Below, piece by piece: positions 4,063-47,289 of a stretch of 64,000 nucleotides of DNA. Position 1 is the stretch's first letter. Every line of letters starts with the position of its first letter. Origin of the DNA: an uncultured Piscirickettsiaceae bacterium (GTDB lineage Bacteria; Pseudomonadota; Gammaproteobacteria; GCF-002020875); NCBI GenBank assembly GCA_964344325.1, contig CAYFMX010000005.1:9013-73012 (forward strand), in the 5' to 3' direction. The notes below the pieces were generated by a model, which saw nothing but the letters and a program-made list of their open reading frames with translations, did no database searches and was not told the origin of the DNA. The translations under genes and the position numbers were made by a program.

Positions 4063-4311
4063 ATGGAAGAATGTGTCTATTTGCAGGATGCAAAATATGT
4101 GGATGGATTTCGGATATTTTTGACATTTAATACCGGTGAATCCGGCGAGGTGGATTTACAAGATATTGTTCAACAATATGAAATTGCTGCGCCATTGCGT
4201 GAACCAGAACAATTTTCCAAATTCTATTTAGATTCGTGGCCTACATTGGCTTGGAAGTGCGGGTTTGATGTTGCGCCAGAGAAGCTATACCGTAGAGCTA
4301 TACGGGGATAG
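4063..4311 (+). CDS. DUF2442-domain protein (orphan)
   Basis: YVDGFRIFLTFNTGESGEVDL … DVAPEKLY matches the DUF2442 pattern. Paralogous to 8851..9093. Confidence 0.7.
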   Translation: MEECVYLQDAKYVDGFRIFLTFNTGESGEVDLQDIVQQYEIAAPLREPEQFSKFYLDSWPTLAWKCGFDVAPEKLYRRAIRG

Positions 4312-4364: not shown

Positions 4365-4988
4365 ATGGCACGCCTAAAACTGGAGGAAGGGAAAAAATAC
4401 ACCTTCACGGATTATTTCAATTTCAATTGTGAGCCGAAAGAGATTGCAGCGGCGTTGGAATACGATTTTCAGGTGCGCAAATTGACATTGCCGCATGTCG
4501 ATTATCCAGAGCCAGAGGAAATCGCACGGCTGCGGCAGGTGCTGAACGAAGGACTGCCAAAAATCGGGATGGGATCGGAGATGGCAAAGCGGGAATTTCT
4601 GATTGCGCCAGTGCTTTTTGCAGTAATCCGATACGCCGATGTGGAGATGGATGTCGAATATCCAATTCAGGTAGATGACCGGCTGTCCGGTTCACTAGAT
4701 TATCTGTTGCGTGCAGCGCGGGAAATGGTGGTGATTGAAGCGAAACGGGGTGATCCGGATCATGGCTTCAACCAGTTAATCGCAGAGATGGTGGCGTTGG
4801 ATCAAGCCGAGGATGAAGAGATTCGCTCAGACCAGATTTATGGCGCGGTCAGTATTGGCAGTTTGTGGCAATTCGGCATTCTGCATCGGGCAAAAAAGAA
4901 AATTGAGCGTGATGTACAAATTTATTCTGTGCCAAACGACTTGGAATCGTTATTCGGTGTTTTATTGGGTATTTTACAGTCGAAATGA
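4365..4988 (+). CDS. hypothetical protein with PD-(D/E)xK nuclease-like motif
   Basis: …SLDYLL…VVIEAKRGD gives a D…(E)xK arrangement typical of restriction-endonuclease-fold proteins. No closer family assignment possible by eye. Confidence 0.45.
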   Translation: MARLKLEEGKKYTFTDYFNFNCEPKEIAAALEYDFQVRKLTLPHVDYPEPEEIARLRQVLNEGLPKIGMGSEMAKREFLIAPVLFAVIRYADVEMDVEYPIQVDDRLSGSLDYLLRAAREMVVIEAKRGDPDHGFNQLIAEMVALDQAEDEEIRSDQIYGAVSIGSLWQFGILHRAKKKIERDVQIYSVPNDLESLFGVLLGILQSK

Positions 4989-5122: not shown

Positions 5123-6043
5123 ATGGCACTCAACATCACCTTCCGGCAACTGCGCGTTTTTGAATCAGTTGCCAAACACTCCAGCTTCACCCGCGCTGCC
5201 GAGGCGTTACACCTGACGCAACCAGCAGTTTCGATGCAGATCAAGCAACTGGAAGAGCACGTTGGTCTGCCACTATTCGACAATATCGGTAAAAAAGTAT
5301 TCCTGACAGAAGCGGGCAAGGCATTTTTTGAATACAGCAAATCGATCAGCCAACAACTTGACGAGGCGGAAAAATATATTGAGAGCGTGCAGGGCGTGCA
5401 TCGCGGCCATCTCAATTTAATGGTGGCGAGTACCGCCAACTATTTTGCGACCAACCTGCTGGCGACCTTCATCCGCCGCCATCCGGAAATCACCTTTTCG
5501 CTCAGCGTTACCAACCGCAAGCGCATTTTGCAGAGCCTTGCCGACAACGAGCCGGATCTAGTCATCATGGGGCAGCCACCGTTCAATCTCGACGTGGTAG
5601 CCGAGGCGTTTCTGGAAAATCCGTTGGTGGTAATCGCGGAAAAAAACCATCCGCTGACGAAGCGCAAACGAAAAATTTCACCCGTGGAATTGTTGGAAGA
5701 GTCATTCGTGATGCGTGAGCCGGGTTCCGGAACCCGCACTGCGATGGAGCGGTTTTTCTCGGATCGCGGTCTCAGTGTTGAGCAGCGGATGCAGTTCGGC
5801 AGCAACGAGGCAATCAAACAGGCGGTGCAAGCGGGACTAGGGTTAGCAGTCGTTTCGGCGCACACGATCCAGTTGGAGCAACAAGCGAATATGCTGAAAG
5901 TGCTGGATGTGGCGGAATTTCCAATCCGCCGCCAGTGGCATCTCGTTTATCGCAAAGGGAAATATTTATCACCCGTGGTCGATGCGTTCCGCCAGTTCGT
6001 GCTGGAAGAAGGCACTTCGCTGTCATTGAACACATCACCTTAA
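5123..6043 (+). CDS. LysR-family transcriptional regulator, CbbR-like
   Basis: N-terminus MALNITFRQLRVFESVAKHSSFTRAAEALHLTQPAVSMQIKQLEE is nearly the CbbR HTH signature. 306 aa. No cbb genes are adjacent. Confidence 0.85.
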   Translation: MALNITFRQLRVFESVAKHSSFTRAAEALHLTQPAVSMQIKQLEEHVGLPLFDNIGKKVFLTEAGKAFFEYSKSISQQLDEAEKYIESVQGVHRGHLNLMVASTANYFATNLLATFIRRHPEITFSLSVTNRKRILQSLADNEPDLVIMGQPPFNLDVVAEAFLENPLVVIAEKNHPLTKRKRKISPVELLEESFVMREPGSGTRTAMERFFSDRGLSVEQRMQFGSNEAIKQAVQAGLGLAVVSAHTIQLEQQANMLKVLDVAEFPIRRQWHLVYRKGKYLSPVVDAFRQFVLEEGTSLSLNTSP

Positions 6044-6080
6044 AAAAACACATCGCTTTCAGAAGTATGTTGCTGACATA

Positions 6081-6114
6081 AAAAAACCACATCAAACGAT
6101 GTGGTTTTTTTATT
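6081..6114. terminator. bidirectional rho-independent terminator between convergent genes
   Basis: aaaaaaccacatc-aaac-gatgtggttttttt: A-run, perfect 9-bp stem, T-run. Confidence 0.8.
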
Positions 6115-6154
6115 TTCAAACTGACGTTTAAACGCCAGTTTGATACCGGCAAAC

Positions 6155-6778
6155 TTAGTAGTACATGCCGTACATACCACCGCCGTACATGCCGTAACCC
6201 TGCATACCACCGCCGTACATGCCGTTGCCATACATACCGCCGCCATACATGCCATAGCCCTGCATACCGCCGTACATGCCTGGATTCATGCTGCCATACA
6301 TACCGCCACCGTACATACCATAGCCCTGCATACCGCCATACATGCCTGGATTCATGCTGCCATACATACCGCCACCGTACATGCCGTAGCCCTGCATACC
6401 ACCATTGCCATACATACCGCCGTCGCCGTACATACCACCACCATACATGCCGTAGCCCTGCATGCCGCCGTTGCCGTACATGCTGCCACCTTGCATACCG
6501 CCGTACATGCTACCACCCTGCATGCTACCGCCCATGCTTGGATGGATCATCTGGTTTTCAATTGGTTTCTTCTTCTTTGCGTCCATAGAATTCATGGAGT
6601 TCATAGAAGCCATAGAGTTCATGGAACCCATAGAAGACATGGAATTCATAGATGCCATAGAGTTCATGGAATTCATGGAGTCCATACCCTTGGAAGCATC
6701 CGCCCCTTCGCCTGCAACGCCGGACATGGAGAACAATGCTGCAGCTACAGCAACGAACATCTGGTTTTTACGGATCAT
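6155..6778 (-). CDS. secreted low-complexity Met/Gly/Tyr-rich repeat protein
   Basis: Sec signal peptide (MIRKNQMFVAVAAALFSMSGVAG/EG). Then (SMN/SMA/SMG)n Met-rich block, KKKK linker, and about 12 GGMYG/MQGYGMYG repeats ending …MYY. The DNA carries matching tandem repeats. The antisense His-rich ORF 6140..6805 is treated as artefact. Confidence 0.6.
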   Translation of the reverse strand: MIRKNQMFVAVAAALFSMSGVAGEGADASKGMDSMNSMNSMASMNSMSSMGSMNSMASMNSMNSMDAKKKKPIENQMIHPSMGGSMQGGSMYGGMQGGSMYGNGGMQGYGMYGGGMYGDGGMYGNGGMQGYGMYGGGMYGSMNPGMYGGMQGYGMYGGGMYGSMNPGMYGGMQGYGMYGGGMYGNGMYGGGMQGYGMYGGGMYGMYY

Positions 6779-7110
6779 ATTGATTTATCTACCTTTTGTT
6801 GTTGAGGTTGATTTGTGGTTAAACCAGCCTGTAGCGCAGGCCGGATACACTCTCAAAGAAAGCCTTTTGAGGGTATCACAAAATCTCATGCAGATTTACA
6901 GATTCTTGCAAATTCTTGAAAATCCCGTGCAAATTTCCCCGGCTTTCTCAATGGTTTTCTGATTTTCTCGCAGATATTTCGTGGATTTTTTTACGAATTT
7001 TCGCCCACCAGCCTGATCCCAAAACAACTGGATAGCGTTCGCCAAATGACTTGTCTATAATGAATCCCTTTTTTCTCGGGAATTCTTCCCAACCGAATCT
7101 GGAGCAGCCT

Positions 7111-8576: not shown

Positions 8577-8840
8577 ATGCCTGAAATTTGCCGCTTTTAT
8601 GGGATTATCATTTCGATTTTCTACGATGAGCATAATCCACCTCATTTTCATGCGCGTTACGGGAAAAGCAAGGTATCAATCAGCATCAAAACCTTGGAAA
8701 TTCTGGATGGAAATATCCCTCCTCGTGCATTGAAAATGGTCAAAGAATGGGCATCTGATCATCAGAAAGAATTAATGCAAGGCTGGGATTTGGCTCAATC
8801 CAATCAACCACCGTTAAAAATCAAGCCATTGGACGAATAG
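8577..8840 (+). CDS. DUF4160-domain protein
   Basis: FYGIIISIFYDEHNPPHFHARYG is the DUF4160 signature. Starts 3 nt after the guaB stop. Confidence 0.75.
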   Translation: MPEICRFYGIIISIFYDEHNPPHFHARYGKSKVSISIKTLEILDGNIPPRALKMVKEWASDHQKELMQGWDLAQSNQPPLKIKPLDE

Positions 8841-8850
8841 AGAAAAAATC

Positions 8851-9093
8851 ATGTTGCATGATGTAATTTCAGCTTCTCATATAGATGGATACAGAATCAA
8901 TCTTACATTTGATGATGGAAAAAGTGGAATTGTTGATTTTTCAGAATATCCTGCAAAAGGCGGTGTTTTTAGGCAATTTGAAGATATTGATTTTTTCAAG
9001 GATTTTTCGGTAAGCAATGATTTGGGAACGTTAGTTTGGAAAAATGAAATTGATGTTGCGCCGGAAACGCTTTATATAAAAGCAATAAGTTAA
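8851..9093 (+). CDS. DUF2442-domain protein (partner of DUF4160)
   Basis: IDGYRINLTFDDGKSGIVDFSEY … DVAPETLYIKAIS. Canonical DUF4160/DUF2442 pair arrangement. Confidence 0.75.
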   Translation: MLHDVISASHIDGYRINLTFDDGKSGIVDFSEYPAKGGVFRQFEDIDFFKDFSVSNDLGTLVWKNEIDVAPETLYIKAIS

Positions 9094-9111
9094 ATTATAG
9101 AAATTCTGGAT

Positions 9112-9438
9112 ATGGAAAACGCCGAACAGAAATGGGAAAGTTTTTTAAATCCGGACATTCTAAAGAAAAATCTAGTCTCTGCATCATTGTATATTGCCGC
9201 ATTTGAATCACTTAAAAATTCGATTATAGATAATTTACAATGTTTCTATTGTATCGAAATATATGAAAAAAACGAGTTATGTAAAGAATACAGGAAAAAG
9301 ATTCTTGCCAGAAATAAAAGCGCAGTATACGCATCACTTGATTGGTTCAAGGAAAATGGAGCAATTGAACAAAAGGATATTGAAAAATTTAACCAGATCA
9401 AAAATCTTCGCAATGATCTAAGTCATCTATCTATATGA
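9112..9438 (+). CDS. hypothetical protein, possibly the 5' part of a frameshifted gene continuing to about 9707
   Basis: 108-aa ORF. A +1-frame continuation (DLLGSYGLPSDFSGIFQELVDLQYKIDHWWIV… about 90 aa) begins within the last codons. Confidence 0.35.
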   Translation: MENAEQKWESFLNPDILKKNLVSASLYIAAFESLKNSIIDNLQCFYCIEIYEKNELCKEYRKKILARNKSAVYASLDWFKENGAIEQKDIEKFNQIKNLRNDLSHLSI

Positions 9439-9668
9439 TCTGCTTGGATCATATGGATTACCATCTGATTTTTCTGGAATTTTTCAAGAGCTAGTCGATC
9501 TCCAGTATAAAATTGACCATTGGTGGATAGTAAATATTGAAATCCCAACAAATCCGAATCTATCAAGTAAGAAAATTGATAAAAATAAAATAACTCCCGG
9601 CTCCATACTTGCCATTCAGATGATGCAAGATATTGCATTAGGTGAAGAAAAAGAATCAAAATACTATT

Positions 9669-9926
9669 ATGAGCACTGGAAAGATTATCAAAGCAATCCC
9701 GCTAGATAATTACAGAATTGAAATCCAAACCAGCATCGGAATTTCAGGCATTTTCGATGTAAAACCCTATTTAAATGGAAGCGCATTTCAAGAATTGACT
9801 GATCAATCCTATTTCAAACTTGTCCGCCCTGCATACCATGGAATCGCATGGCCACACGAACAAGATTTCAGCGCAGATACGATTATTTGGGACATACAAA
9901 ACAACAAAAATATCCAGCAATGCTAA
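9669..9926 (+). CDS. DUF2442-like protein
   Basis: IIKAIPLDNYRIEIQTSIGISGIFDVKPYLNG…YFKLVRPAYHGIAWPHEQDFSADTI follows the DUF2442 pattern. Start taken at MSTGK; track ORF begins 9642. Confidence 0.55.
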   Translation: MSTGKIIKAIPLDNYRIEIQTSIGISGIFDVKPYLNGSAFQELTDQSYFKLVRPAYHGIAWPHEQDFSADTIIWDIQNNKNIQQC

Positions 9927-9930
9927 GCCT

Positions 9931-10509
9931 ATGACTGTAACAACCCTTAAGAAAAACCTTAAAACACTTTCAAACGATGATCTAGTCCAATATATTGTAG
10001 ACCTCTACAAGAAAGACAAGTTCGTCAAAGACTATTTTGATATAGAATTCAGTAAAAATAACCAAAATGATTTAGAGATATTTAATAAATACAAAAATAC
10101 TATAGAACATGAATTTTTCCCCACCAGGGGACATGGGAAGGCAAGGATTTCCAAACCCAAAAAGGCAATTTCAGAATACAAAAAAATATCAAACAACCAA
10201 ACTCATATTGCAGAACTGATGATTTTCTATGTAGAAAATGGTGTACAATTCACGTTTGAGTACGGCGATATTAACGACCAATTTTATACAAGCATGGGAA
10301 AAATGTATGAAGATGCATTAAAACATATAAAAGAACATGGGCTAAAAGATGCATTCCGTTTCAGATGCAAAAAGATCGTAACTGATACTGTTAACATGGG
10401 CTGGGGATTTCACGATATGCTTGAAAGGTTGCACAATACTTATTGCAGAGAATCATTACTTTCCGAAAACAAATTAAAAACAGATGAATCTTATAAAAAT
10501 AAAAAATAA
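9931..10509 (+). CDS. hypothetical protein (AT-rich island gene)
   Basis: 192-aa ORF from ATG 9931 (MTVTTLKKNLK…). The track ORF 9820.. is a 5' extension overlapping the previous gene. No recognisable family. Confidence 0.45.
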   Translation: MTVTTLKKNLKTLSNDDLVQYIVDLYKKDKFVKDYFDIEFSKNNQNDLEIFNKYKNTIEHEFFPTRGHGKARISKPKKAISEYKKISNNQTHIAELMIFYVENGVQFTFEYGDINDQFYTSMGKMYEDALKHIKEHGLKDAFRFRCKKIVTDTVNMGWGFHDMLERLHNTYCRESLLSENKLKTDESYKNKK

Positions 10510-20370: not shown

Positions 20371-20670
20371 ATGGTTGATTGGAAACAAGTGACCGGCTTT
20401 GAGTGGGATGCCGGAAATGAACGGAAAAATGCAGAAAAGCATCATGTTAGCCGATTTGAGGCGGAGCAGGTGTTTTTTAATGCGCCATTGCTGATTTTGG
20501 ATGATGCAAAACATAGCCAGCACGAAGAACGCTACCATGCGCTTGGCAAAACGGATAACGCCAGATTGTTGCATACTACATTTACATTGCGTGCTGCTGG
20601 CACTTTGATTCGTGTAATTTCAGCGCGTGATATGCATCGCAAAGAGAAGGTGATTTATGGGCAAACTTAA
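20371..20670 (+). CDS. brnT: BrnT-family (DUF497) ribonuclease toxin
   Basis: FEWDAGNERKNAEKHHVSRFEAEQVF…RVISARDMHRKEK. Confidence 0.8.
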   Translation: MVDWKQVTGFEWDAGNERKNAEKHHVSRFEAEQVFFNAPLLILDDAKHSQHEERYHALGKTDNARLLHTTFTLRAAGTLIRVISARDMHRKEKVIYGQT

Positions 20671-20929
20671 AAAAATACCTGAATTCAAAACTGAAGCGGA
20701 AGAACGTGATTTTTGGGAAAATCATGACTCCACCGAGTATGTGAATTGGAAACAGGCTGAATCGGTTTCAATGCCAAATTTAAAACCCACCACCAAAACA
20801 ATTTCGATCCGGTTACCAGAAAGTTTGTTGAACAGCATTAAAATTGAAGCCAACAAGCGTGATATGCCTTATCAGTCGTTGATCAAAGCGTGGCTGGCTG
20901 ATGATGTGAAACAGAGTCGTGGTATTTAA
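20657..20929 (+). CDS. brnA: BrnA-family antitoxin (RHH/CopG-like)
   Basis: Overlaps brnT by 14 nt. EAEERDFWENHDSTEYVNW…ISIRLPESLLNSIKIEANKRDMPYQSLIKAWL. Confidence 0.8.
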   Translation: MGKLKKIPEFKTEAEERDFWENHDSTEYVNWKQAESVSMPNLKPTTKTISIRLPESLLNSIKIEANKRDMPYQSLIKAWLADDVKQSRGI

Positions 20930-21147
20930 TTAAGGTGGGGCTATACGAAATTTCTTCTGATGAAGAATAAGCTTCTTCTTCGCCAATTTTACTTCTTTAA
21001 CAGAATTTTCCTCAAAAGAAAATTCTGCAAGACCTTCGCTCTCAATATGTTCTAAGAATTCGGATGCAGATTTCATATAATCACTCCATAAAGGTACTTA
21101 GCAACATTCCAAATACTTTTCCTACCAATACCGCTAAAGTTCCAAAA

Positions 21148-21621
21148 TCACCGAATCCGATACCCCGCATGGCAGGTAACACAAGCCGCCGTCACTTCGG
21201 TCAACGCCCGATATGCTGGCACAGGATCACCCTCCTCCGCCCGCATCGCAAAACGGCTCGCCGCCCGGTGCATATTGGTTCCCGCCTGACGCATTCCCGC
21301 TGGCATGAACTGCCCCATATGATGCGCCCCGTGCGATGCCAGAGAACTCATACCTAACCGTTTTTCTGCCACAGCCGCCACCTGATCCATCTCATCATTC
21401 GCCATCAACGTGAGAATTTCATGAATCGCTGCCAAATGGTCACGCATATTGGCCATCATGTGCTGTTGCATCATTTCCGGTAATTGCACCAACTGTCGGG
21501 CATCTTCCTGCGCGGCCACTTGCATCGTAAAAATACTGCTTGAAAATAGGCAAAATGTTGCGGCGATAAAACGGGTTTTCCCTTGCATTTTTTTCATTTC
21601 ATATTCCTTTTCTGTTTTCAA
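21148..21621 (-). CDS. periplasmic class II c-type cytochrome (cytochrome c'/c-556-like)
   Basis: Signal peptide. Helical Met-rich body. Single C-terminal haem motif CVTCHAGYR. Confidence 0.6.
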   Translation of the reverse strand: MKTEKEYEMKKMQGKTRFIAATFCLFSSSIFTMQVAAQEDARQLVQLPEMMQQHMMANMRDHLAAIHEILTLMANDEMDQVAAVAEKRLGMSSLASHGAHHMGQFMPAGMRQAGTNMHRAASRFAMRAEEGDPVPAYRALTEVTAACVTCHAGYRIR

Positions 21622-21657
21622 TTTTTCATTTGATTTTTAAAAATCAGAATGCAATCG

Positions 21658-21996
21658 TTAGTTGTTTTTCTCTTGTAACCATTTCTCTATTCCAATTTCT
21701 TTTCGCCTCAGTAGATCACTTTTTCGCATCGCCAGTGATTTCTCAAATTCATCATCCGACAAATTTGGATCGCGCAGTTCGTTGAATATTTTGCACGGAA
21801 ATTCTTCACATAGCCCACAATGCCCAAGCTGTTTTTTGTTTTTGCAGCAATCATACAGCGGACAAATTCCATTTGGTATTTGCGATGTCCAGAACGGTTT
21901 TCCCGCTACATTGCCGCATCCTGCGCACTGTTTTCCGAGAAATTCACATTCACCACAATACAATCCACATACTGGCGCATAAGTTATTTGGCTCAT
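21658..21996 (-). CDS. Cys-rich DUF3795-like protein
   Basis: CGLYCGECEFLGKQCAGCGN…CPLYDCC…CGLCEEFPC cysteine pattern. Confidence 0.6.
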   Translation of the reverse strand: MSQITYAPVCGLYCGECEFLGKQCAGCGNVAGKPFWTSQIPNGICPLYDCCKNKKQLGHCGLCEEFPCKIFNELRDPNLSDDEFEKSLAMRKSDLLRRKEIGIEKWLQEKNN

Positions 21997-22015
21997 TTGA
22001 TTTTCACTTTTAATT

Positions 22016-22594
22016 TTAGATTGAAATTAGTTCAATATCTGGCAGGTTTTCAGAAACTTCCTGAACCGTTTTATCTTTCGTGAGCAATTCCACAATAATC
22101 GGCAACGGCTCCGCCCAAATTTCGGGTAAATTCGCTTCGCCTTGCGTGCGGATCGGATAAGCCAGTTTTTCTTCCGGTGGACAAAATTCTGCCGCCACAT
22201 CCAGCTTATTTCCCCGCGCATCAATCCGATACCAGCCGAATTTCTCCAAATAAACCGCATTCAATCCATGCAAACAAAACGGCGGCTCATCCGTAACCGT
22301 CAAACGCTGATAACACAAACCGGCTGGAATTTGGTTCGCCCGCAACAACGCCGCCAGCAGATGGCTTTTCGCATAGCAATAGCCCGTGCCATATTGGAGC
22401 ACATCGGATGCCTTGCACGTCACTGGATTCAATTGATAATCCCAACTGTGTTTAATTTCATCGCGTACAAAATTGAAACAATTTCGGGCAATTTCTTCGG
22501 GATTTTTTCTGTTTTCAGCGAGTTCTTTGGCTTTATTGAGAACAGTTGGATTTTCCCAGTCGATAAATTCAGACGGTTTCAGATATTGATTCAT
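22016..22594 (-). CDS. transglutaminase-like cysteine peptidase-fold protein
   Basis: …GTGYCYAKSHLLAALLRANQIPA… (catalytic Cys context) with downstream His/Asp candidates. Confidence 0.7.
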   Translation of the reverse strand: MNQYLKPSEFIDWENPTVLNKAKELAENRKNPEEIARNCFNFVRDEIKHSWDYQLNPVTCKASDVLQYGTGYCYAKSHLLAALLRANQIPAGLCYQRLTVTDEPPFCLHGLNAVYLEKFGWYRIDARGNKLDVAAEFCPPEEKLAYPIRTQGEANLPEIWAEPLPIIVELLTKDKTVQEVSENLPDIELISI

Positions 22595-22620
22595 TGTTGA
22601 TAAACCCGTTGATCAATTCG

Positions 22621-23325
22621 TCATTTCTTTCCACAAATATATTGCGCAATTAAACCGCCAGAAAATTCTTTTGATTCAATCGAAAAACCGGCGCGGGAAA
22701 ACATTTCTTCCAAAACCCAGGAATAGGTTGAATATTCATCCTGAAAATGTTCAATCGCATCGTTACGCAGAAAATCTCCACCTTGTGCAGCTTGCGCATC
22801 TACAAATGCGTTAATATTTTCGATGCAATGCTCTTCTTCAATCACCACATCCTGCATAAACAGTTTTCCGGCAGGCGATAAAATTGCATGCATTTTTTTC
22901 AGCGCAATCAGTTTCCAAAAATCGGGTAGATGATGAAAAGAGAATGAAGTAACAATAAAATCCGGCGCAACAATTTCTGGCGGAAGATTCAAAAATCCGC
23001 CTTTCAGAAAATGGATATTTTCCACGTTCGCTTCTGCGGCTTTGGTTTTCGCAAACGCAAGCATCGCATCCGAAACATCGACTGCAAACACCGTCAAACC
23101 GCGTTTCGCTGCTGCAATTGAGAATGTGCCTGTGCCACATCCAATATCGACTAAGGATTGCCCCGGTTTTACGGCAATGGCATCCAGAATTTTTTCATTT
23201 TCCGCCGCAACATCGCGGAATTTCGCATGGCTGGCATCGTATGCGGCGACCTCTGCTGGTGATGCGTAATCTTTTCCGATTTGGTGAAATTCATTGTATT
23301 GCCAGTCTTTAATATTGGTGTTCAT
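22621..23325 (-). CDS. class I SAM-dependent methyltransferase
   Basis: Motif I LVDIGCGTGTFSIAAAKRGLTVFAVDVSDAML. Rossmann MTase layout. Confidence 0.8.
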   Translation of the reverse strand: MNTNIKDWQYNEFHQIGKDYASPAEVAAYDASHAKFRDVAAENEKILDAIAVKPGQSLVDIGCGTGTFSIAAAKRGLTVFAVDVSDAMLAFAKTKAAEANVENIHFLKGGFLNLPPEIVAPDFIVTSFSFHHLPDFWKLIALKKMHAILSPAGKLFMQDVVIEEEHCIENINAFVDAQAAQGGDFLRNDAIEHFQDEYSTYSWVLEEMFSRAGFSIESKEFSGGLIAQYICGKK

Positions 23326-23425
23326 AGAAAATTTCTTGTTTAATTCTTATCAAAAACAGGAGATTCATGAATATGATATTTTGAAATTTATTATCTTTTT
23401 ATATTTAAAATTATATCAGAAATTA

Positions 23426-24145
23426 TTATTTGAAAAATTTATTTTTACAATGATTGAATATTAAACTTATCAAATCAAACAGGCGTCTTCTTGTTTCATT
23501 AAAATAATCTATATCAATTAACACCTTATTATCCTCTGGAGGATTTATTCCAACTTCTTTCAATTTGCTTAAGTAAATATCATTAGTCTTCCAGGAATTG
23601 TGAATACCTAAATCACGCCTAGCTTTTGCCTCAACATATATTGGCCATACAGAATCTAATGCATCTTCTTCCATAGACAAGAGAGAAATTATTTCTCTTT
23701 TATACTCATTAGGCCTTTTGTACATTATCTTATTAAGATATCCCTCTGCTAAATAACGTATTGCTGTGTCAATACTTCCAAACTCTAATAACTTATTAAG
23801 TTCTATATTGTTTTTTCCAAGCTTATTGGGGTGAAGACATAAAACTTCTATTAATAAATCTTTAATAAACCCCTCTACTTCAGAAATCATCAATATATGT
23901 GATTGTAGATATACGAATCTAACCAGCTTAAACTCCTCAATCTGAAGAGTGTTGTTTTCAAACAAATGATCTGGAAGGTTGCTACACATATCTAATACTC
24001 TTTTATGAAGTTCGGTTCCTTGGTTTTTTAATAAAACTTGATTGATATTTAAAGCAATGGCTCCAAATTCTCCAAGAGCAAGAAGACTTTTTCCTTTTTC
24101 AACATACAATTCATAAATTTTATTCATGATACATCCTCCATACAT
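23426..24145 (-). CDS. hypothetical AT-rich protein with HEPN-like Rx4HN motif (candidate abortive-infection-type effector)
   Basis: All-helical ~235-aa protein. …EAKARRDLGIHNSW… fits the HEPN Rx4-6H motif. GC far below neighbours. Start probably MNKIY at 24127. Confidence 0.4.
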   Translation of the reverse strand: MYGGCIMNKIYELYVEKGKSLLALGEFGAIALNINQVLLKNQGTELHKRVLDMCSNLPDHLFENNTLQIEEFKLVRFVYLQSHILMISEVEGFIKDLLIEVLCLHPNKLGKNNIELNKLLEFGSIDTAIRYLAEGYLNKIMYKRPNEYKREIISLLSMEEDALDSVWPIYVEAKARRDLGIHNSWKTNDIYLSKLKEVGINPPEDNKVLIDIDYFNETRRRLFDLISLIFNHCKNKFFK

Positions 24146-24199
24146 CTATATATCAAATAAATTGAAGACTAAAATATAAAATGAAAAATCTATTTTTTT

Positions 24200-24586
24200 C
24201 TATCCAAAAAACCACCCATACAACAACCGCCCTGGCATAAACGCAAACGCCCCCGCAATGAGAATCCCGCCAACATACAACCCAATCATATGATTCCGGT
24301 GCTTTTTGAACTGATTGTTCTGCACCGCAAAATAAGCAGTAGGCACAGAATAGAAAACCAGCACACTAAACAGATGCAGAAAACCAAAATGATCGAATAA
24401 TCGCGGCCCAACCTCGGCAGGCATAAACAGCGTGATTGTTGCTGTCAGTAGCATCAGTGCCATATACATTTTGCCGAATAACCGATGCATAGGCGTTCCT
24501 TTCCGACTGATCAATAGATACGCACCGATCAAAAATGCAGGAACGACCGTACCCAAATGTAAATAGGCCGATTGAAGATAATTCAT
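24200..24586 (-). CDS. small 4-TM membrane protein (DUF2306-like, tentative)
   Basis: 128 aa, four hydrophobic helices. Start is 4 nt from the upstream MTase stop, suggesting translational coupling. Confidence 0.55.
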   Translation of the reverse strand: MNYLQSAYLHLGTVVPAFLIGAYLLISRKGTPMHRLFGKMYMALMLLTATITLFMPAEVGPRLFDHFGFLHLFSVLVFYSVPTAYFAVQNNQFKKHRNHMIGLYVGGILIAGAFAFMPGRLLYGWFFG

Positions 24587-24590
24587 AGAA

Positions 24591-25340
24591 TCAAGCTGCT
24601 CGCATCATGTAAAACGTATATCCATAATTTTCATGATGCTTTTTGAATAATTCCATCTCGTTTTCTGTATCTTTAATCACTAGTTGCATCATTTCATCGC
24701 CGCTATTTTTCAACGCTGCGATATTTTCATGCAATGGATCGTAATAATTGCCCCACCACGCTTTTGAGGGTAATCGACGCGTTTCCAGAACTTCAAAACC
24801 GGAATTTTGAATCAATTCTATATTTTCCGATTCGGTTTTGATCCCCGGATAAATATTCTGCATCATTTGTGTTACGTTTTCTGATGAGTTCTCCGAGAAA
24901 TAACTCATCTCCGAAATCACCGCGATGCCATTTTTCGCCATCAATGGTCGCCATGCTTTTAACGCACCTTCAAAGGTAATGGTGTAGGCTGCGCCTTCTG
25001 ACCACAATAGATCAATCGATTCCAGTTCCCAATTGAGATTTCCCATATCGCATTCGATGGGTTCGATGAAATCCGCCAGCCCTTCTTCTCTGGCTTGTTG
25101 CATCATTTGATCCAGAAAATCTTTCGAGAAATCGACCGCTTTGACTTTGGTTCGATATTTTTTAGCAAGCATCAACGTGCCTGCTCCTGCACCACAACCG
25201 AGGTCGGCGATTCTGGGATTTGGTGGCAGTTCGGTGAATTGATTCAGAATATCATCCGAAAAATCTGCATCGCCGGGGCCTTGTCTTTTTAGGCCAACAT
25301 GCAGTTGAATCAATGCTTCAATATATTTTTCTTCTTCCAT
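24591..25340 (-). CDS. class I SAM-dependent methyltransferase
   Basis: Motif I IADLGCGAGAGTLMLAKKY. Rossmann MTase. Confidence 0.8.
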   Translation of the reverse strand: MEEEKYIEALIQLHVGLKRQGPGDADFSDDILNQFTELPPNPRIADLGCGAGAGTLMLAKKYRTKVKAVDFSKDFLDQMMQQAREEGLADFIEPIECDMGNLNWELESIDLLWSEGAAYTITFEGALKAWRPLMAKNGIAVISEMSYFSENSSENVTQMMQNIYPGIKTESENIELIQNSGFEVLETRRLPSKAWWGNYYDPLHENIAALKNSGDEMMQLVIKDTENEMELFKKHHENYGYTFYMMRAA

Positions 25341-25820
25341 TAGATATTCTTTTTAGGAAGGTTTTCTTCCAATTTTTCACGAATTCTTAAATGCATATTT
25401 GTTATTTATATCTCTTCTATCGACAAGATTACAATCCGGTCTTTTTTGCATGCTTTTTAATTCAGATACCATTTATGAAAAGTTATGATTGTGTTTGGAG
25501 GTGTAAGAATCCCGGTTTTTCCAAACTTCATTTATGATTTGGTCTTTATACATTTTCATCATTCTTCACATTGCACAGATTTTTGTATCAATTTGTTTTA
25601 CAAATAGAAATAACTTTATGGAAAATAGGCTAGATATTTTTCGAAATAGGTTTTGGCCACTTTTCAGATTTGAAAAATACACAAGATCCTCGCAAGATAA
25701 GTATAATGCCATATTCGCTTGCTATTTGTTATGAAGCTGTTTTGCTAAATAACGAACAAAGTAACTTGTTAAAAAGTATTATGGTAGATAGTCAAGTGTA
25801 GCTAATTGTTATATTTCTTA

Positions 25821-26729
25821 CTATTTATCAGAGTGATACGTTGATAATCCTGGAGCAATTACACGGCTTTCAACATCATAAAGAGTAAGATGATTTCTTA
25901 GCCAAAGCTGGTAATCGTAACCTTCCAAATGATGATCTTCAGTACAATCTACATTCCAATGGTGCAACCAATAACCAACAACTGCTGCTCTAACTGATAG
26001 CTTAAGGCAGCCATTACTCATATTAAAGTCATGTTCAATTGTTTTTGGGTATTTCACATTTTTTTCATTTGGATGAGGTACTAACTCCAAATTAACCATA
26101 CGATTCCATTGGTAATCTGTTGAAGCATTTCCTACAGAAGCGTTAGGATCAAAGCTATTTCCTATTTCAATAGATACAATTCTTGTTAAGGCGTATGAAC
26201 GATATGGGTTTTTAGGCTTAGATTCATCATATGCCCTAACATACCAATGTATACCATTGTCAAACATTGCATGAGGTCTAATTATTTTTTTCGACAATCC
26301 ATTGTTGACTGAGCGATAAGATATATTTAATTGCTTCATCCCCGATATAGCTCTAGTCACTTTTTCTAATAGCTCTATTCTAGGCAATGAAAGTCTTTGA
26401 GGGCATAATATTCCGTCAAACTCAGACATACCAAGAGCCTCACTTACCTTTGCAGTACGAAGCTTAGAAAGAGCGGAGCTTATTGGCAACTCAAAAACTG
26501 GCTTGAAAGTCTCCTCAAGAATTTCGTATTTCTTCGAGCTTTGGTTAAGCATAAGGTTTTGTTCAGAAAGCTCTTTGTATAGCCTTATATCTCTAGTTGC
26601 GGCAGCCTCTCCAATACCAAACCTTAACGTCAAATCTCCCCTTGAGATCCAACCTCGAAATCTAAGCATGAATTCCAGATATTCCAACCTATCATAAACT
26701 ATCTTTGATAACTCGTTGATTTCTTTCAT
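25821..26729 (-). CDS. brxR: BrxR/CapW-family transcriptional regulator (wHTH–WYL–WCX)
   Basis: N-terminus IVYDRLEYLEFMLRFRGWISRGDLTLRFGIGEAAATRDIRLYKEL follows the BrxR wHTH consensus (DRL..LEFIEFRL.W.G.INR.DL…FG.S…DLR.Y.EL). Central …NGIHWYVRAYDESK… is the WYL motif. About 300 aa. Confidence 0.8.
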   Translation of the reverse strand: MKEINELSKIVYDRLEYLEFMLRFRGWISRGDLTLRFGIGEAAATRDIRLYKELSEQNLMLNQSSKKYEILEETFKPVFELPISSALSKLRTAKVSEALGMSEFDGILCPQRLSLPRIELLEKVTRAISGMKQLNISYRSVNNGLSKKIIRPHAMFDNGIHWYVRAYDESKPKNPYRSYALTRIVSIEIGNSFDPNASVGNASTDYQWNRMVNLELVPHPNEKNVKYPKTIEHDFNMSNGCLKLSVRAAVVGYWLHHWNVDCTEDHHLEGYDYQLWLRNHLTLYDVESRVIAPGLSTYHSDK

Positions 26730-26792
26730 AACAATACCTTCGTTGTTTGTTCATACATTGTGGCATAGTATGATATTAATGCAATCTTGACA

Positions 26793-26807
26793 TAATCAAA
26801 TTGATTA
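26793..26807. promoter_or_regulatory. palindromic candidate operator in the brxR promoter region
   Basis: TAATCAAaTTGATTA perfect 7-bp arms. Lies between divergent brxR and the small ORF at 26867. Confidence 0.35.
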
Positions 26808-26866
26808 GATATCATCATCTTTAAGTCATGATTGTGTGGCGAAATTTATATAAAGAGGAGTTGATT

Positions 26867-27040
26867 ATGGCAACTAATGGAGTTTCTGGTGATAATAGAA
26901 GACATGGGGCGATAAAAAATCGTTCGCAAACAAAGCATTCTTCTGGAAAGCACTGGATTAAGAGAAACACTGATACAGGACAATTTATGAATGTCAAAGC
27001 TGATGGGAAAAAATTTAAGGGAGTACGTAAAGAAAAATAA
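26867..27040 (+). CDS. small basic hypothetical protein (57 aa)
   Basis: MATNGVSGDNRRHGAIKNRSQTKHSSGKHWIKRNTDTGQFMNVKADGKKFKGVRKEK. Divergent from brxR. Good RBS (AAGAGGAG). Confidence 0.3.
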   Translation: MATNGVSGDNRRHGAIKNRSQTKHSSGKHWIKRNTDTGQFMNVKADGKKFKGVRKEK

Positions 27041-38825: not shown

Positions 38826-39545
38826 CTACGATTTACTATGATTATGCTCGTGCAAGCGACGGATCAATCCATCTATACCATTGTGATCTATTTCTGTGCG
38901 AAAGCTGGATTGGTAACTTTTGACTAAACTGATTCCCTCCACCACAACATCAAATACTTTCCATTTGCCTGACAACTTCTCCTTACGCAACCGGAAGGCA
39001 ATGGGCATTCCCGGTCCATCTCTATCCTGCAAGTCATAAAAACTGGCATGTACTACTGTGCTTGTCTTGCCTCGTTGTAGAATATGCGGAGAAAATTCTA
39101 CCTGTTTTCCTTGAAACCCGAGCAATGCGGTCGCATAAGTATGGATCAGCATCTGTTTGAATGCATCCTGAAAATCATCTTTCTGTTGTTCTGAAATAGC
39201 CTTCCAATGCTTCCCCAACATCCAGATCGACATCACATCAAAATCCAGAATTGGGAGAATGAGTTCATCCACCAACTCTAGAGCCACTTGATAAACTTCG
39301 CCATCTCCCTCGCGCATCCGCGATTCTTCCTTCTCCAAGCGTTCCAATACCTTTATTGTCACACCGCGGAGCATCTCATCTGGCCGATCTTCAACATCTT
39401 GAAAAGCCTGTGCCTGCGACCCTGCAACATCTTGAAAAGCCTGTGCCTGCGACCCTGCAACATCTTGAAAAGCCTGTGCCTGCGACCCTAGCATTACGAA
39501 AAAAAGGAAAAATAATGAAAACAATACCGGATTTTTTTTAAGCAT
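38826..39545 (-). CDS. mlaC: MlaC/Ttg2D-family periplasmic phospholipid-binding protein with N-terminal triplicated 11-aa repeat
   Basis: Signal peptide, then GSQAQAFQDVA repeated three times (33-bp DNA repeats, 39380..39480), then the MlaC fold region (…LDFDVMSIWMLGKHWKAISEQQKDDF…). Confidence 0.75.
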   Translation of the reverse strand: MLKKNPVLFSLFFLFFVMLGSQAQAFQDVAGSQAQAFQDVAGSQAQAFQDVEDRPDEMLRGVTIKVLERLEKEESRMREGDGEVYQVALELVDELILPILDFDVMSIWMLGKHWKAISEQQKDDFQDAFKQMLIHTYATALLGFQGKQVEFSPHILQRGKTSTVVHASFYDLQDRDGPGMPIAFRLRKEKLSGKWKVFDVVVEGISLVKSYQSSFRTEIDHNGIDGLIRRLHEHNHSKS

Positions 39546-41939: not shown

Positions 41940-42129
41940 GCGCCAAATTCTCAGCAGATTTCCGATTAGGAAGCTAAAAAAGGGAGCAGGATAACATTCT
42001 ACTGATTGATCAGAAAATGTTTTTTATCGCTTAAACTTAATCTTTGTGCTCGTATTAGCGCAACGAGTCCAATATAATGAATCCATTTTGTTAATCGGGC
42101 AGTTCAAAATCTACGGAGAAATGATCCTC

Positions 42130-42711
42130 ATGAAAAAATATCCAACATTCTCGCGCACAGTGCTATTGGCTGGCGCACTGACTCTTTCTGCCAGCTCTGT
42201 ATTTGCGGAAGGTGGCTTTATGAGCACAAAAGGCTCCGGTTTTTATGGTTTTCTTACCTATCAAAACAGTGAAGCCGATTCAGGAGACCTTCCCAAAACG
42301 AACTCAACCGAAGAAGAGAATGATCATTTCACTTTAGGCCTCGGTTACTCTCTAAACAAATATCTTGCTATCGAATCCAGTTATATGGATATGGATACTT
42401 TAATTGATCAACAGGATGCCACCAATTACATAGATATTTCCGGATGGAATCTAGGGACTACTTTGTCTATCCCTGCCACAAATAAACTAACAGCTTTTAT
42501 CAAAGGTGGAGTATATTTATGGGATAGGGAAATGAACGGGCCTAGTTATAGTAATCTAGGAAAGGAAGAAGATGGAAGCGATCCTTATTTGGGTATTGGC
42601 TTAGAATATAGTATTAACAAACGTTTTTCTGTCTTGGGCGATTACACTCAATATAAAGTTGACAATATAGATATTGATACTTATAGCGGGGGTATAAAAG
42701 TAGATTTCTAA
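42130..42711 (+). CDS. small outer-membrane beta-barrel protein, paralog 1
   Basis: Signal peptide MKKYPTFSRTVLLAGALTLSASSVFA. Alternating strand pattern. C-terminal …GGIKVDF. 71-ish% identical to the next gene except in three predicted loops. Confidence 0.6.
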   Translation: MKKYPTFSRTVLLAGALTLSASSVFAEGGFMSTKGSGFYGFLTYQNSEADSGDLPKTNSTEEENDHFTLGLGYSLNKYLAIESSYMDMDTLIDQQDATNYIDISGWNLGTTLSIPATNKLTAFIKGGVYLWDREMNGPSYSNLGKEEDGSDPYLGIGLEYSINKRFSVLGDYTQYKVDNIDIDTYSGGIKVDF

Positions 42712-42878: not shown

Positions 42879-43481
42879 ATGAAAAAATATCCAACATTTT
42901 CACACACGGTGCTACTGGCTGGTGTACTGACCCTTTCTTCCGGCTCTGTATTTGCAGAAGGTAGCCTTATAAGCACAAAAGGCTCCGGTTTTTATGGTTT
43001 TCTTACTTATCAAAATAGTGAGGCCAGTTCAGATGAAATTACACCATCTAGTCCTCTTGTACCGATAACAACAGATAATGACCATTTTAGCTTAGGCCTT
43101 GGTTACTCTCTGAATAAATATCTTGCTATCGAATCCAGCTATATGGATATGGATACCTTAGTCGCTAGACATGGTTTAGCTCACGATGAGATGGATATTT
43201 CTGGATGGAATCTCGGTGCTGCTTTGTCTATCCCAACTACAGATAAGCTAATCCCCTTTATCAAAGGTGGAATATATTTATGGGATAGGGAAATGAAAGG
43301 AGGTTTATATAGTTATAGTCATCTGGCAGCTATTAAAATGGATGGAAGTGACCCTTACTTGGGGATCGGCTTAGAATACGGTCTTAACAAACGTTTTTCT
43401 GTGATAGGCGATTATACAAGATATAAGGCTGACGATATTGATGTTGATACCTATAGCGGGGGTATAAAAGTGGATTTCTAA
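42879..43481 (+). CDS. small outer-membrane beta-barrel protein, paralog 2
   Basis: Signal peptide MKKYPTFSHTVLLAGVLTLSSGSVFA. Same barrel core and C-terminus. The duplicated unit includes about 30 nt of leader. Confidence 0.6.
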   Translation: MKKYPTFSHTVLLAGVLTLSSGSVFAEGSLISTKGSGFYGFLTYQNSEASSDEITPSSPLVPITTDNDHFSLGLGYSLNKYLAIESSYMDMDTLVARHGLAHDEMDISGWNLGAALSIPTTDKLIPFIKGGIYLWDREMKGGLYSYSHLAAIKMDGSDPYLGIGLEYGLNKRFSVIGDYTRYKADDIDVDTYSGGIKVDF

Positions 43482-46446: not shown

Positions 46447-47289
46447 TCAAACAGAAAAATAATGTCCCTGCGGATGATGCACCACAATCGCAGAGGTGGA
46501 CTCTTCTGGCCAAAGCTGCTCGTCCTCACTCATCTGCACACCAATACGCTCCGCGCCAAGTAACTCAATGATTTTATGCTGTTCGGACAAATCGGGACAG
46601 GCCGGATACCCAAATGAAAAACGCGCCCCGCGATATTTCTGCTTGATCATCTCCTGAATTTCCCGCGCATCTTCCATCGCGAAACCCAGTTCGGAGCGGA
46701 TCATGCGGTGGATGTATTCTGCCAGCCCTTCTGCCCCTTCGGCGTTGAGACCATGCCAGTAGAGGTATTCCTGATACTGATCAGTCGTAAACAACTCCCG
46801 CGCAAAATCGGAAGCGGATTGTCCGACCGTCACCAATTGCAGCGGCAACACATCCATTTCGCCCGATTCGACCGTGCAGAAAAAATCGGTGATGCAGCGT
46901 TTTTTGTTTTTGGTTTGACGCGGTAATGGAAATCGGCAGCGCTCTTCTTTACTGTCCGGAGCAGCATAAACGATCAACTCTTCCCCATCTGCCTGCGCCG
47001 GAAAATAACCGTAGACTGCCTGTGGCTGGAGGATATTCTGCGCCACGCTTTCGTGCACCAATCGGTTCAGAATTGGATCAACCTCTGTACGCGCCCACTG
47101 TTTGTACTCCTCTTTGGATTTCCCTTTGGGCTTGAAACCCCACTGTACCTTGTAGAGTGCGGTGCGGTTGATATAAGGAACCAACGCCGTCAGCGGCACT
47201 TGCTCCACCACCCGGCTACCCCAAAACGGCGGCTTCGGGATTGGATTGTCGGTTTGTAATTTTGTTGATGTTGTTTCTGCTTCATTCAT
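46447..47289 (-). CDS. stand-alone methionine synthase (MetH) reactivation/AdoMet-binding domain protein
   Basis: …KYRGARFSFGYPACPDLSEQHKIIELLGAERIGVQMSEDEQLWPEESTSAIVVHHPQGHYFSV matches the C-terminal activation domain of B12-dependent MetH. No other MetH modules adjacent. Confidence 0.7.
   Translation of the reverse strand: MNEAETTSTKLQTDNPIPKPPFWGSRVVEQVPLTALVPYINRTALYKVQWGFKPKGKSKEEYKQWARTEVDPILNRLVHESVAQNILQPQAVYGYFPAQADGEELIVYAAPDSKEERCRFPLPRQTKNKKRCITDFFCTVESGEMDVLPLQLVTVGQSASDFARELFTTDQYQEYLYWHGLNAEGAEGLAEYIHRMIRSELGFAMEDAREIQEMIKQKYRGARFSFGYPACPDLSEQHKIIELLGAERIGVQMSEDEQLWPEESTSAIVVHHPQGHYFSV

Follow-up and report, generated by a model that had tools for sequence, protein, structure and literature searches.

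Sulfur globule proteins are structural proteins that are targeted to the periplasm and have been likened to keratins and to plant cell wall proteins (PMC10386293). They span a size range of 8.5–18.5 kDa (PMC7356093). The YG domains of the type found in PEX13 form Tyr-dependent hydrogels, with a dense meshwork, when they are purified (PMC9795577). A different kind of low-complexity sequence is rich in methionine. Ctr1 has methionine-only motifs that select for Cu(I) and Ag(I) (PMC9117721), and CueO uses Met-rich domains that are disordered to recruit Cu(I) (PMC11494321). MrpX of Azospira suillum is a small periplasmic protein with a Met content of 20%; reactive chlorine species oxidise it, and YedY recycles it. 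Its gene belongs to a yedYZ-mrpX operon under a SigF promoter, and 44% of its residues are charged (PMC4436054). Here we describe a gene whose product appears to combine the Gly/Tyr-rich and the Met-rich types of sequence. The gene lies on the minus strand at 6155..6778 of a 64,000-nucleotide stretch of contig CAYFMX010000005.1 from an uncultured Piscirickettsiaceae bacterium; this whole stretch is referred to as the window. The gene is a complete coding sequence of 207 codons plus TAA, and it encodes what appears to be an orphan secreted Met/Gly/Tyr repeat protein, which we tentatively read as an envelope coat or matrix protein.

The list of open reading frames (ORFs) of the window, with their translations, places a 207-aa ORF with an ATG start on the minus strand at 6155..6778. 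An ORF also exists on the plus strand at 6140..6805. It is rich in His, Ala, Thr, and Val, starts with TTG, and begins just past the terminator hairpin of a neighboring LysR gene. Because both strands are open across the repeat, the coding strand needed testing. A codon-usage score was computed as a log-odds value relative to twelve housekeeping genes of the window. The minus frame scored +0.26, and the other five frames scored between -0.33 and -0.50, with the His-rich plus-strand ORF at -0.38. Further evidence comes from the repeats. In units that encode identical peptides, 16 of 39 third codon positions vary as opposed to none of the 78 first and second positions. For example, the five copies of a 14-aa core (GMQGYGMYGGGMYG) encode the same protein sequence and differ at 8 nucleotide sites, all of which are at codon position 3. 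The same variable sites are position 1 of the plus-frame codons, where they alter the amino acid and produce an alternation of A/T and V/I. Since the differences are silent only in the minus frame, it is the minus-strand protein on which purifying selection has acted while the repeats diverged. A gene caller also placed partial genes on the minus strand in independent Logan contigs, and the minus-strand ORF carries the signals of a gene, namely an ATG start, a Shine-Dalgarno-like AAGGT, a signal-peptide layout, and a terminator. Thus, 6155..6778 on the minus strand is the coding frame, and the plus-strand ORF is its antisense shadow. The earlier note, made from the letters of the window, had read the minus strand and had named expression of the plus-strand ORF as one case that would overturn its reading; the codon score and the synonymous variation contradict that case.

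The N-terminus of the protein, MIRKNQMFVAVAAALFSMSGVAG followed by EG, shows n-, h-, and c-regions arranged as in Sec signal peptides. In the translation, the signal peptide covers residues 1–23 (6710..6778, minus strand) and consists of MIRKNQ (n), MFVAVAAALFSM (h), and SGVAG (c). Neither a lipobox Cys nor a twin-Arg motif is present in it. Signal peptidase I is likely to cleave between VAG and EG, as predicted from the translation, and residues 6–18 form a helix in the AlphaFold2 model. The mature protein consists of 184 aa with a mass of 18.9 kDa and a pI of 5.6. Its composition is 32.1% Gly, 21.7% Met, 12.5% Tyr, 10.3% Ser, 6.5% Asn, and 2% Pro. Charged residues (D/E/K/R) make up 6% of it, and it has one His, no Arg, no Trp, and no Cys.

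Two repetitive modules separated by a linker comprise most of the mature protein. The first module is a Met block (residues 32–67; 6578..6685, minus strand) made up of twelve M-x-S triplets, whose sequence is SMNSMNSMASMNSMSSMGSMNSMASMNSMNSM. The triplets read MDS, MNS, MNS, MAS, MNS, MSS, MGS, MNS, MAS, MNS, MNS, and MDA. In other words, every triplet begins with Met, 11 of the 12 end in Ser, and the middle residue is always small (N/A/S/G/D). Where a triplet recurs unchanged, its copies differ at synonymous sites only. The block is coil in the AlphaFold2 model with a pLDDT of about 40. It is followed by a basic, non-repeat linker, KKKKPIENQMIHPS (residues 68–81; 6536..6577, minus strand, from the translation), which includes KKKK and holds four of the five Lys residues and the sole His of the mature protein. 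The second module is a Gly/Met/Tyr domain of the YG type (residues 82–207; 6158..6535, minus strand). It is 126 aa long and contains 16 MYG, 7 MQG, a terminal MYY, and a single charged residue. Its repeats are organized as the 14-aa core, present five times, and a 22-aa unit, SMNPGMYGGMQGYGMYGGGMYG, present twice. AlphaFold2 predicts weak beta-hairpins in this domain with a 22-residue period (pLDDT 55–63). The model of the whole protein, made from a single sequence, has a pLDDT of 52. At the DNA level, Tandem Repeats Finder (TRF) reported periods of 9, 27, and 45 nt over 6583-6686, which corresponds to the Met block, and periods of 15, 30, and 66 nt over 6166-6502 in the Gly/Met/Tyr domain, the 66-nt period with 85% matches.

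Methionine recurs throughout both modules. It occurs every 3–6 residues, with one 12-residue gap, and accounts for 40 of the 184 residues; counted by spacing, there are 12 consecutive MxxM, 8 MxxxM, and 15 MxxxxM. Tyr is always within a few residues of a Met, 17 of the 23 Tyr residues are in MY pairs, and the distance from one Tyr to the next is mostly 3–8 residues. This architecture bears out what the earlier note had described by eye. It had proposed a secreted, low-complexity Met/Gly/Tyr repeat protein, which is a real minus-strand gene with a sequence that matches the one quoted there. The MxxM periodicity that it saw in the Met block is real and runs through 12 consecutive motifs. The KKKK linker, the MYG and MQG units, and the MYY end are all present, and the repetitive DNA is reflected in the TRF periods and in a 44-nt exact repeat.

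Does the protein belong to a known family? No Pfam family matched. The sole NCBIfam match was a fimbrial chaperone at an E-value of 0.15, and the sole match in PDB had an E-value of 5.9; both are noise. A word-index search of 5.8 billion proteins returned two matches, both of them YG regions of the PEX13 type from eukaryotes, and one of the two carries PF04088. An exhaustive phmmer search of 1.84 billion representatives returned 7 matches, all of which are unrelated low-complexity repeat proteins; the best, at 60 bits, is a GAGMQG repeat of the CstF-64 type. When the Met block alone was compared with the 5.8 billion proteins, 37 candidates shared words with it and none reached E ≤ 10. Repeat-rich proteins such as CstF-64 scored well, and the searches would therefore not have missed a true orthologue carrying MYG repeats among called proteins. 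Homologous genes that are uncalled or fragmented could stay hidden, as this gene does. A scan of metagenomes matched 59 stretches and confirmed none, although tblastn filters low-complexity sequence and may thereby have masked the query. A back-translated GMQGYGMY pattern had no match in JGI metagenome contigs or in IMG/VR. A generic (ATG N6)x7 pattern was discarded as uninformative; among the matches listed, it hit simple repeats in viral contigs. Judged by these searches, the protein is a sequence orphan. The earlier note could fit it to no known family by eye, and the Pfam, NCBIfam, PDB, and protein searches agree.

The gene is extremely selective in its codons, in the manner of highly expressed genes. 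Gly is encoded by GGT or GGC in 60 of 61 cases, and Ser is encoded by TCT, TCC, or AGC in all 21 cases. The fraction of C-ending codons for Y/N/F/H/D is 0.60, which compares with 0.62 for rpsO and with 0.07–0.52 for twenty other genes of the window. Such a pattern probably reflects translational optimisation of an abundant protein. The gene also appears to be transcribed on its own. Its 5′ neighbor, guaB, is divergent, and its 3′ neighbor, the LysR gene (5123..6043, plus strand), is convergent. Between the two convergent genes is a bidirectional intrinsic terminator (6078..6113) of the form A7-CCACATC-GTTT-GATGTGG-T7. It is located 35 nt beyond the LysR stop and 42 nt beyond the stop of the repeat-protein gene. 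RNA folding gives its hairpin a dG of -21.8 kcal/mol (z = -6.1), and 0 of 200 shuffled sequences were equally stable. The fold thus confirms the bidirectional terminator that the earlier note had drawn for the two genes in common. A consensus terminator scan did not pick up the hairpin at 6078-6113, probably as a result of base pairing between its flanking A and T runs. The gene's own strong terminator, together with the divergent orientation of guaB, indicates a monocistronic unit.

Signals upstream of the gene are less clear-cut. A Shine-Dalgarno-like AAGGT (6791..6795, minus strand) is read from the sequence 12 nt 5′ of the ATG, which is a longish spacing. Further upstream in the 5′ region is an inverted repeat, ACTCTCAAA N8 TTTGAGGGT (6849..6874), with 9-nt arms and 89% complementarity, which may be either an operator or a hairpin of the 5′ untranslated region. 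A scan for the sigma-70 consensus gave no promoter on the minus strand. By eye, two copies of CAAGAAT can be made out 10 nt from each other at about 6901-6917 (minus strand), where the promoter is presumed to be; binding sites of response regulators are typically spaced in this way. A non-coding RNA or riboswitch was considered and rejected, as nothing in the region reached Rfam gathering thresholds, and all of the matches below threshold are the terminator hairpin.

What kind of organism makes the protein? Past the low-coordinate end of the window is a gene for form II RuBisCO (459 aa, NF010002, 898 bits), followed by CbbQ, CbbO, and RadA. The RuBisCO, CbbQ, and CbbO genes are about 5–9 kb outside the window (contig logan:ERR2281803_270, 163-5103). 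The 3′ end of RadA opens the window, and the RuBisCO gene starts ~9.8 kb upstream of an ORF at 4365 that encodes a protein of unknown function, also 207 aa long. Piscirickettsiaceae in the NCBI taxonomy include Thiomicrospira, Hydrogenovibrio, and Thiomicrorhabdus, among others, and these three genera are sulfur-oxidising autotrophs. The form II RuBisCO and the affinity to Piscirickettsiaceae indicate that the host is an autotrophic gammaproteobacterium, and it is plausibly a sulfur oxidiser.

We favor a model in which the protein is made in abundance and associates with itself to serve as a coat or matrix of the cell envelope, a tentative reading to which we give somewhat less than an even chance. 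In this model, Sec export and cleavage after VAG would release an 18.9-kDa, nearly uncharged protein that has no predicted fold and consists of the two modules. The flexible (M-x-S)12 module would act as a brush of thioether side chains that touches a soft or hydrophobic ligand. The Gly/Met/Tyr domain, which in composition and motifs resembles the cohesive YG domains of PEX13, would self-associate via Tyr and Met contacts, and this self-association would build a gel-like coat or layer, located either in the periplasm or at the cell surface. Finally, the coat would surround elemental sulfur or polysulfide that stems from chemolithoautotroph metabolism. The cleavage site, the high abundance, the self-association, the ligand, and the link to sulfur are all steps that we infer. 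Among the candidate roles, that of coating elemental sulfur is the most concrete, and about half of the weight that we give to the coat as a whole would fall on it. The idea comes from an analogy with sulfur globule proteins (SgpA/SgpB, PF17228; Beggiatoa ALG67575.1 and EIJ43877.1), which among bacterial proteins of such a make-up are the best known. Like the protein described here, these have a Sec signal, a small mature size, and a low-charge, Gly/Tyr-rich, repetitive body without a globular domain. They contain 25–27% Gly, 15–17% Tyr, and 6–9% charged residues, as compared with 32%, 12.5%, and 6% here. Furthermore, both kinds of protein come from chemolithotrophs that live on sulfur or CO2, the present host being placed among them by its RuBisCO. 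The likeness would be that of a functional analogue, a protein that works like a sulfur globule protein, and not that of a family member.

Several observations weigh against this model. The protein does not match PF17228 at E ≤ 10, either full-length or mature, and three published controls from Beggiatoa and Thioflexithrix scored 21–28 bits in the same test; BLASTP against the sulfur globule protein of B. alba gave an E-value of 59. Sulfur globule proteins have a Trp-rich N-terminus (W..GDFNMSMGGGGRGYG) and spaced prolines, with 4–6% Trp, 15–17% Pro, and 2% Met, whereas this protein has no Trp, 2% Pro, and 22% Met. No sulfur-oxidation gene was found in the 64-kb window or in the ~10 kb of flanks. 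As the protein has no homologues, the model is left without comparative or contextual support. The AlphaFold2 model, with its pLDDT of 52, is of low confidence. The codon pattern could stem in part from the amplification of a few founder codons. Lastly, the regular spacing of Met points to a chemical role of the thioethers, such as metal binding or redox chemistry, at least as much as to a structural one. Because Met is regular through both modules, it provides the strongest argument that thioether chemistry matters beyond cohesion. The coat and the ligand-binding ideas are, however, compatible with each other and not mutually exclusive.

If thioether chemistry is the main function, one candidate ligand is copper. 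A periplasmic sponge or chaperone for Cu(I)/Ag(I) would bind soft metals via the thioethers of the MxxM run and of the Met residues that are 4–5 apart in the Gly/Tyr domain, and would buffer copper or hand it over in the oxidising periplasm. The number and spacing of the methionines (40 Met, 21.7%, in 12 MxxM, 8 MxxxM, and 15 MxxxxM) are in line with such a role. The Tyr residues, each of which is close to a Met, could, in our view, give cation-pi contacts, and precedents exist in the Mets motifs of Ctr1 (PMC9117721) and in the Met-rich domain of CueO (PMC11494321). However, we consider a copper protein rather unlikely. Pfam and NCBIfam detected no CopC, CusF, multicopper-oxidase, cupredoxin, or heavy-metal-associated (HMA) domain, and the protein has one His and neither Cys nor Trp. 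There is no cop, cus, cue, or pco gene and no metal-sensing regulator among the neighbors examined and in the flanks seen, and no copper-system protein was returned in any search; just 37 proteins share words with the Met block, and none of them reached E ≤ 10. A codon bias of constitutive high expression would be unusual for an inducible metal-stress gene, and the Gly/Tyr module would be left without an explanation. The earlier note had offered a structural or cross-linkable matrix as the alternative to a metal sponge. Such a putative matrix role fits the codon bias and the YG likeness better than a copper role does.

Methionine can also serve as a target of oxidants. As a sacrificial periplasmic sink of the MrpX type, the protein would scavenge HOCl, H2O2, and radicals at an oxic-anoxic interface through its Met (and Tyr) residues, and the periplasmic methionine sulfoxide reductase MsrPQ would re-reduce it. 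Tyr is also readily oxidised. The signal peptide and the Met content of 21.7% resemble those of MrpX, and the chain appears disordered and exposed in the AlphaFold2 model. These features are set against a charged fraction of 6% as opposed to 44% in MrpX, a gene that stands alone with no MsrP/MsrQ-type gene among the window ORFs examined, and a sequence that resembles no protein in the databases, MrpX among them. An oxidant sink is in our view quite unlikely. A last explanation is that there is no functional protein gene at all, either because the ORF is decaying or spurious in a run of repeats or because the plus-strand ORF is the true product. Such an explanation would account for the open frames on both strands, for the absence of homologues, and for the fact that neither the 207-aa product nor its variants are on record in the protein collection. 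It is nevertheless extremely improbable. All 16 of the 16 variable sites are silent in the minus frame and are at codon position 1 of the plus-strand ORF, and that ORF combines a codon score of -0.38 with a TTG start just past the LysR terminator hairpin. The minus-strand ORF, on the other hand, has an ATG, the layout of a signal peptide, the AAGGT, and a terminator, and its sequence recurs in the raw-read unitigs of ERR2281803. A precursor of a ribosomally synthesized and post-translationally modified peptide (RiPP) with repeated cores was also considered and rejected, as there is no adjacent modifying enzyme and a Sec signal takes the place of a leader peptide.

The read data come from metagenome project PRJEB17505 (runs ERR2281800 and ERR2281803). 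The raw-read unitigs of ERR2281803 are identical to the window on both flanks, with no mismatch, but break off at 6302 and start again at 6353. No exact repeat in the gene exceeds 44 nt; the one of this length is found at 6273-6316 and at 6339-6382, and 31-mers are repeated at those two places only. It is because of this 44-nt repeat that the k=31 Logan assembly splits into two contigs. Ordinary reads should be able to tell the two 66-nt units apart, since four synonymous sites distinguish them. Variation in repeat copy number is plausible from the structure of the repeat; no polymorphism was seen in the unitigs that match the flanks. The 207-aa product, a version with an alternative start, and the product of the plus-strand ORF are all missing from a collection of 15 billion proteins, though neighboring proteins are on record, on a contig of 85,063 bp. 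A practical lesson is that repeat genes of this kind are easily lost, given that an exact repeat of 44 nt interrupts an assembly at k=31, that the antisense strand is open as well, and that the product is missing from very large collections.

The genes in the neighborhood of the repeat-protein gene are LysR, the protein of unknown function encoded at 4365, a DUF2442 gene, a porin, guaB, a DUF4160/DUF2442 pair, and guaA. The earlier note had called the LysR regulator CbbR-like. The label is reasonable, although the protein scores below the NCBIfam cut-off for CbbR (278 vs 450 bits). Its closest homologue, at 73% identity, is in an uncultured Piscirickettsiaceae genome, and the RuBisCO beside that homologue is 93% identical to the host's. 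The LysR gene is ~9 kb downstream of the RuBisCO gene on the same strand, whereas its closest relatives are divergent from cbbM. Between the RuBisCO cluster and LysR are RadA, a pentapeptide-repeat protein, the porin, DUF2442, and the protein of unknown function. None of 80 related LysR loci contained a Gly/Tyr/Met-rich ORF. The genes downstream of LysR in its relatives differ (a deformylase-like ORF, an ORF of 405–439 aa, or one of ~850 aa), and thus synteny is of no help. The gap between guaB and guaA (8577-10509) contains the DUF4160/DUF2442 pair, a 108-aa ORF, a second DUF2442 gene, and a DUF6155 gene, and a further DUF2442 gene is located at 4063-4311, upstream of LysR. The small genes around guaB/guaA and LysR look like toxin-antitoxin-style or mobile insertions.

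Elsewhere in the window, overlapping genes for a BrnT toxin (PF04365) and a CopG-type antitoxin (PF12441) are present at 20371-20929. A stretch of low GC content (0.37–0.38, vs about 0.47 elsewhere) extends from about 21100 to 27000 and may be a genomic island; it contains a cytochrome c′-like gene, DUF3795, a transglutaminase-like protein, two SAM methyltransferases, a WYL-domain regulator, and unknown ORFs. A homologue of MlaC (38826-39545, minus strand), in an mlaFEDCB-like cluster that adjoins murA and hisGDC, has a perfect tandem duplication, GSQAQAFQDVA GSQAQAFQDV, right after its signal sequence. Two tandem paralogous genes for OmpA-like or small beta-barrel outer-membrane proteins (42046-42711 and 42879-43481, plus strand) encode N-termini that are near-identical, MKKYPTFS[R/H]TVL. 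A lone gene of the NqrB/RnfD family (PF03116; 44256-45380, plus strand) has no visible partner subunits, and a 280-aa protein (46447-47289, minus strand) consists solely of the activation domain of B12-dependent methionine synthase (PF02965).

How does the repeat protein compare with the other described systems? The nearest sequences in all of the databases searched are the YG domains of PEX13 (PF04088 region). The match that carries PF04088 is a protist protein whose YG region contains 39% Gly, 16% Tyr, and 22% Met, as compared with 32%, 12%, and 22% in this protein, and MYG and GGGMYG units are common to both. In contrast, the PEX13-type matches have a hydrophobic segment after the YG region; this protein lacks that segment and has the (M-x-S)12 module in addition. 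Pfam detected neither PF04088 nor an SH3 domain in it. PEX13 belongs to the eukaryotic peroxisomal import pore, whereas the gene described here is bacterial, with a Sec-exported product and host-like codon usage. The likeness is one of convergent low complexity and not of homology. The Met-rich segments of Ctr1 and CueO share with this protein a repeated MxxM in a flexible, extracytoplasmic segment without Cys. They are, however, inserts in a transporter or an enzyme, whereas here the Met-rich stretch stands alone, without His/Asp co-ligands and without linkage to copper genes. MrpX is likewise periplasmic, has about 20% Met, and lacks an enzyme domain, but it is highly charged and belongs to an msrPQ-type operon, whereas this protein is Gly/Tyr-rich and its gene is monocistronic.

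The protein thus joins two known themes, the exported Gly/Tyr-rich structural protein and the exported Met-rich segment, in a combination and a stand-alone form that have not been described. If it turned out to bind Cu(I) or to scavenge oxidants, it would be a methionine-only polymer of high capacity that stands alone, and no such design has been described in bacteria. If it is an abundant cohesive coat, then chemolithoautotrophs would have invented envelope or inclusion coats repeatedly from unrelated low-complexity sequences, and the protein would offer a simple bacterial model of Tyr/Met-driven gelation outside of the cytoplasm. A bolder possibility, in our estimation unlikely, is that this is the first prokaryotic secreted protein of the cohesive YG/FG type, a Met-Tyr-Gly polymer that gels or phase-separates in the periplasm as a selective, thioether-rich compartment and sequesters elemental sulfur, polysulfide, or Cu(I). 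It would then stand for a new class of proteins that form condensates or coat inclusions outside of the cytoplasm, one that is not homologous to the known sulfur globule proteins and had an origin of its own.

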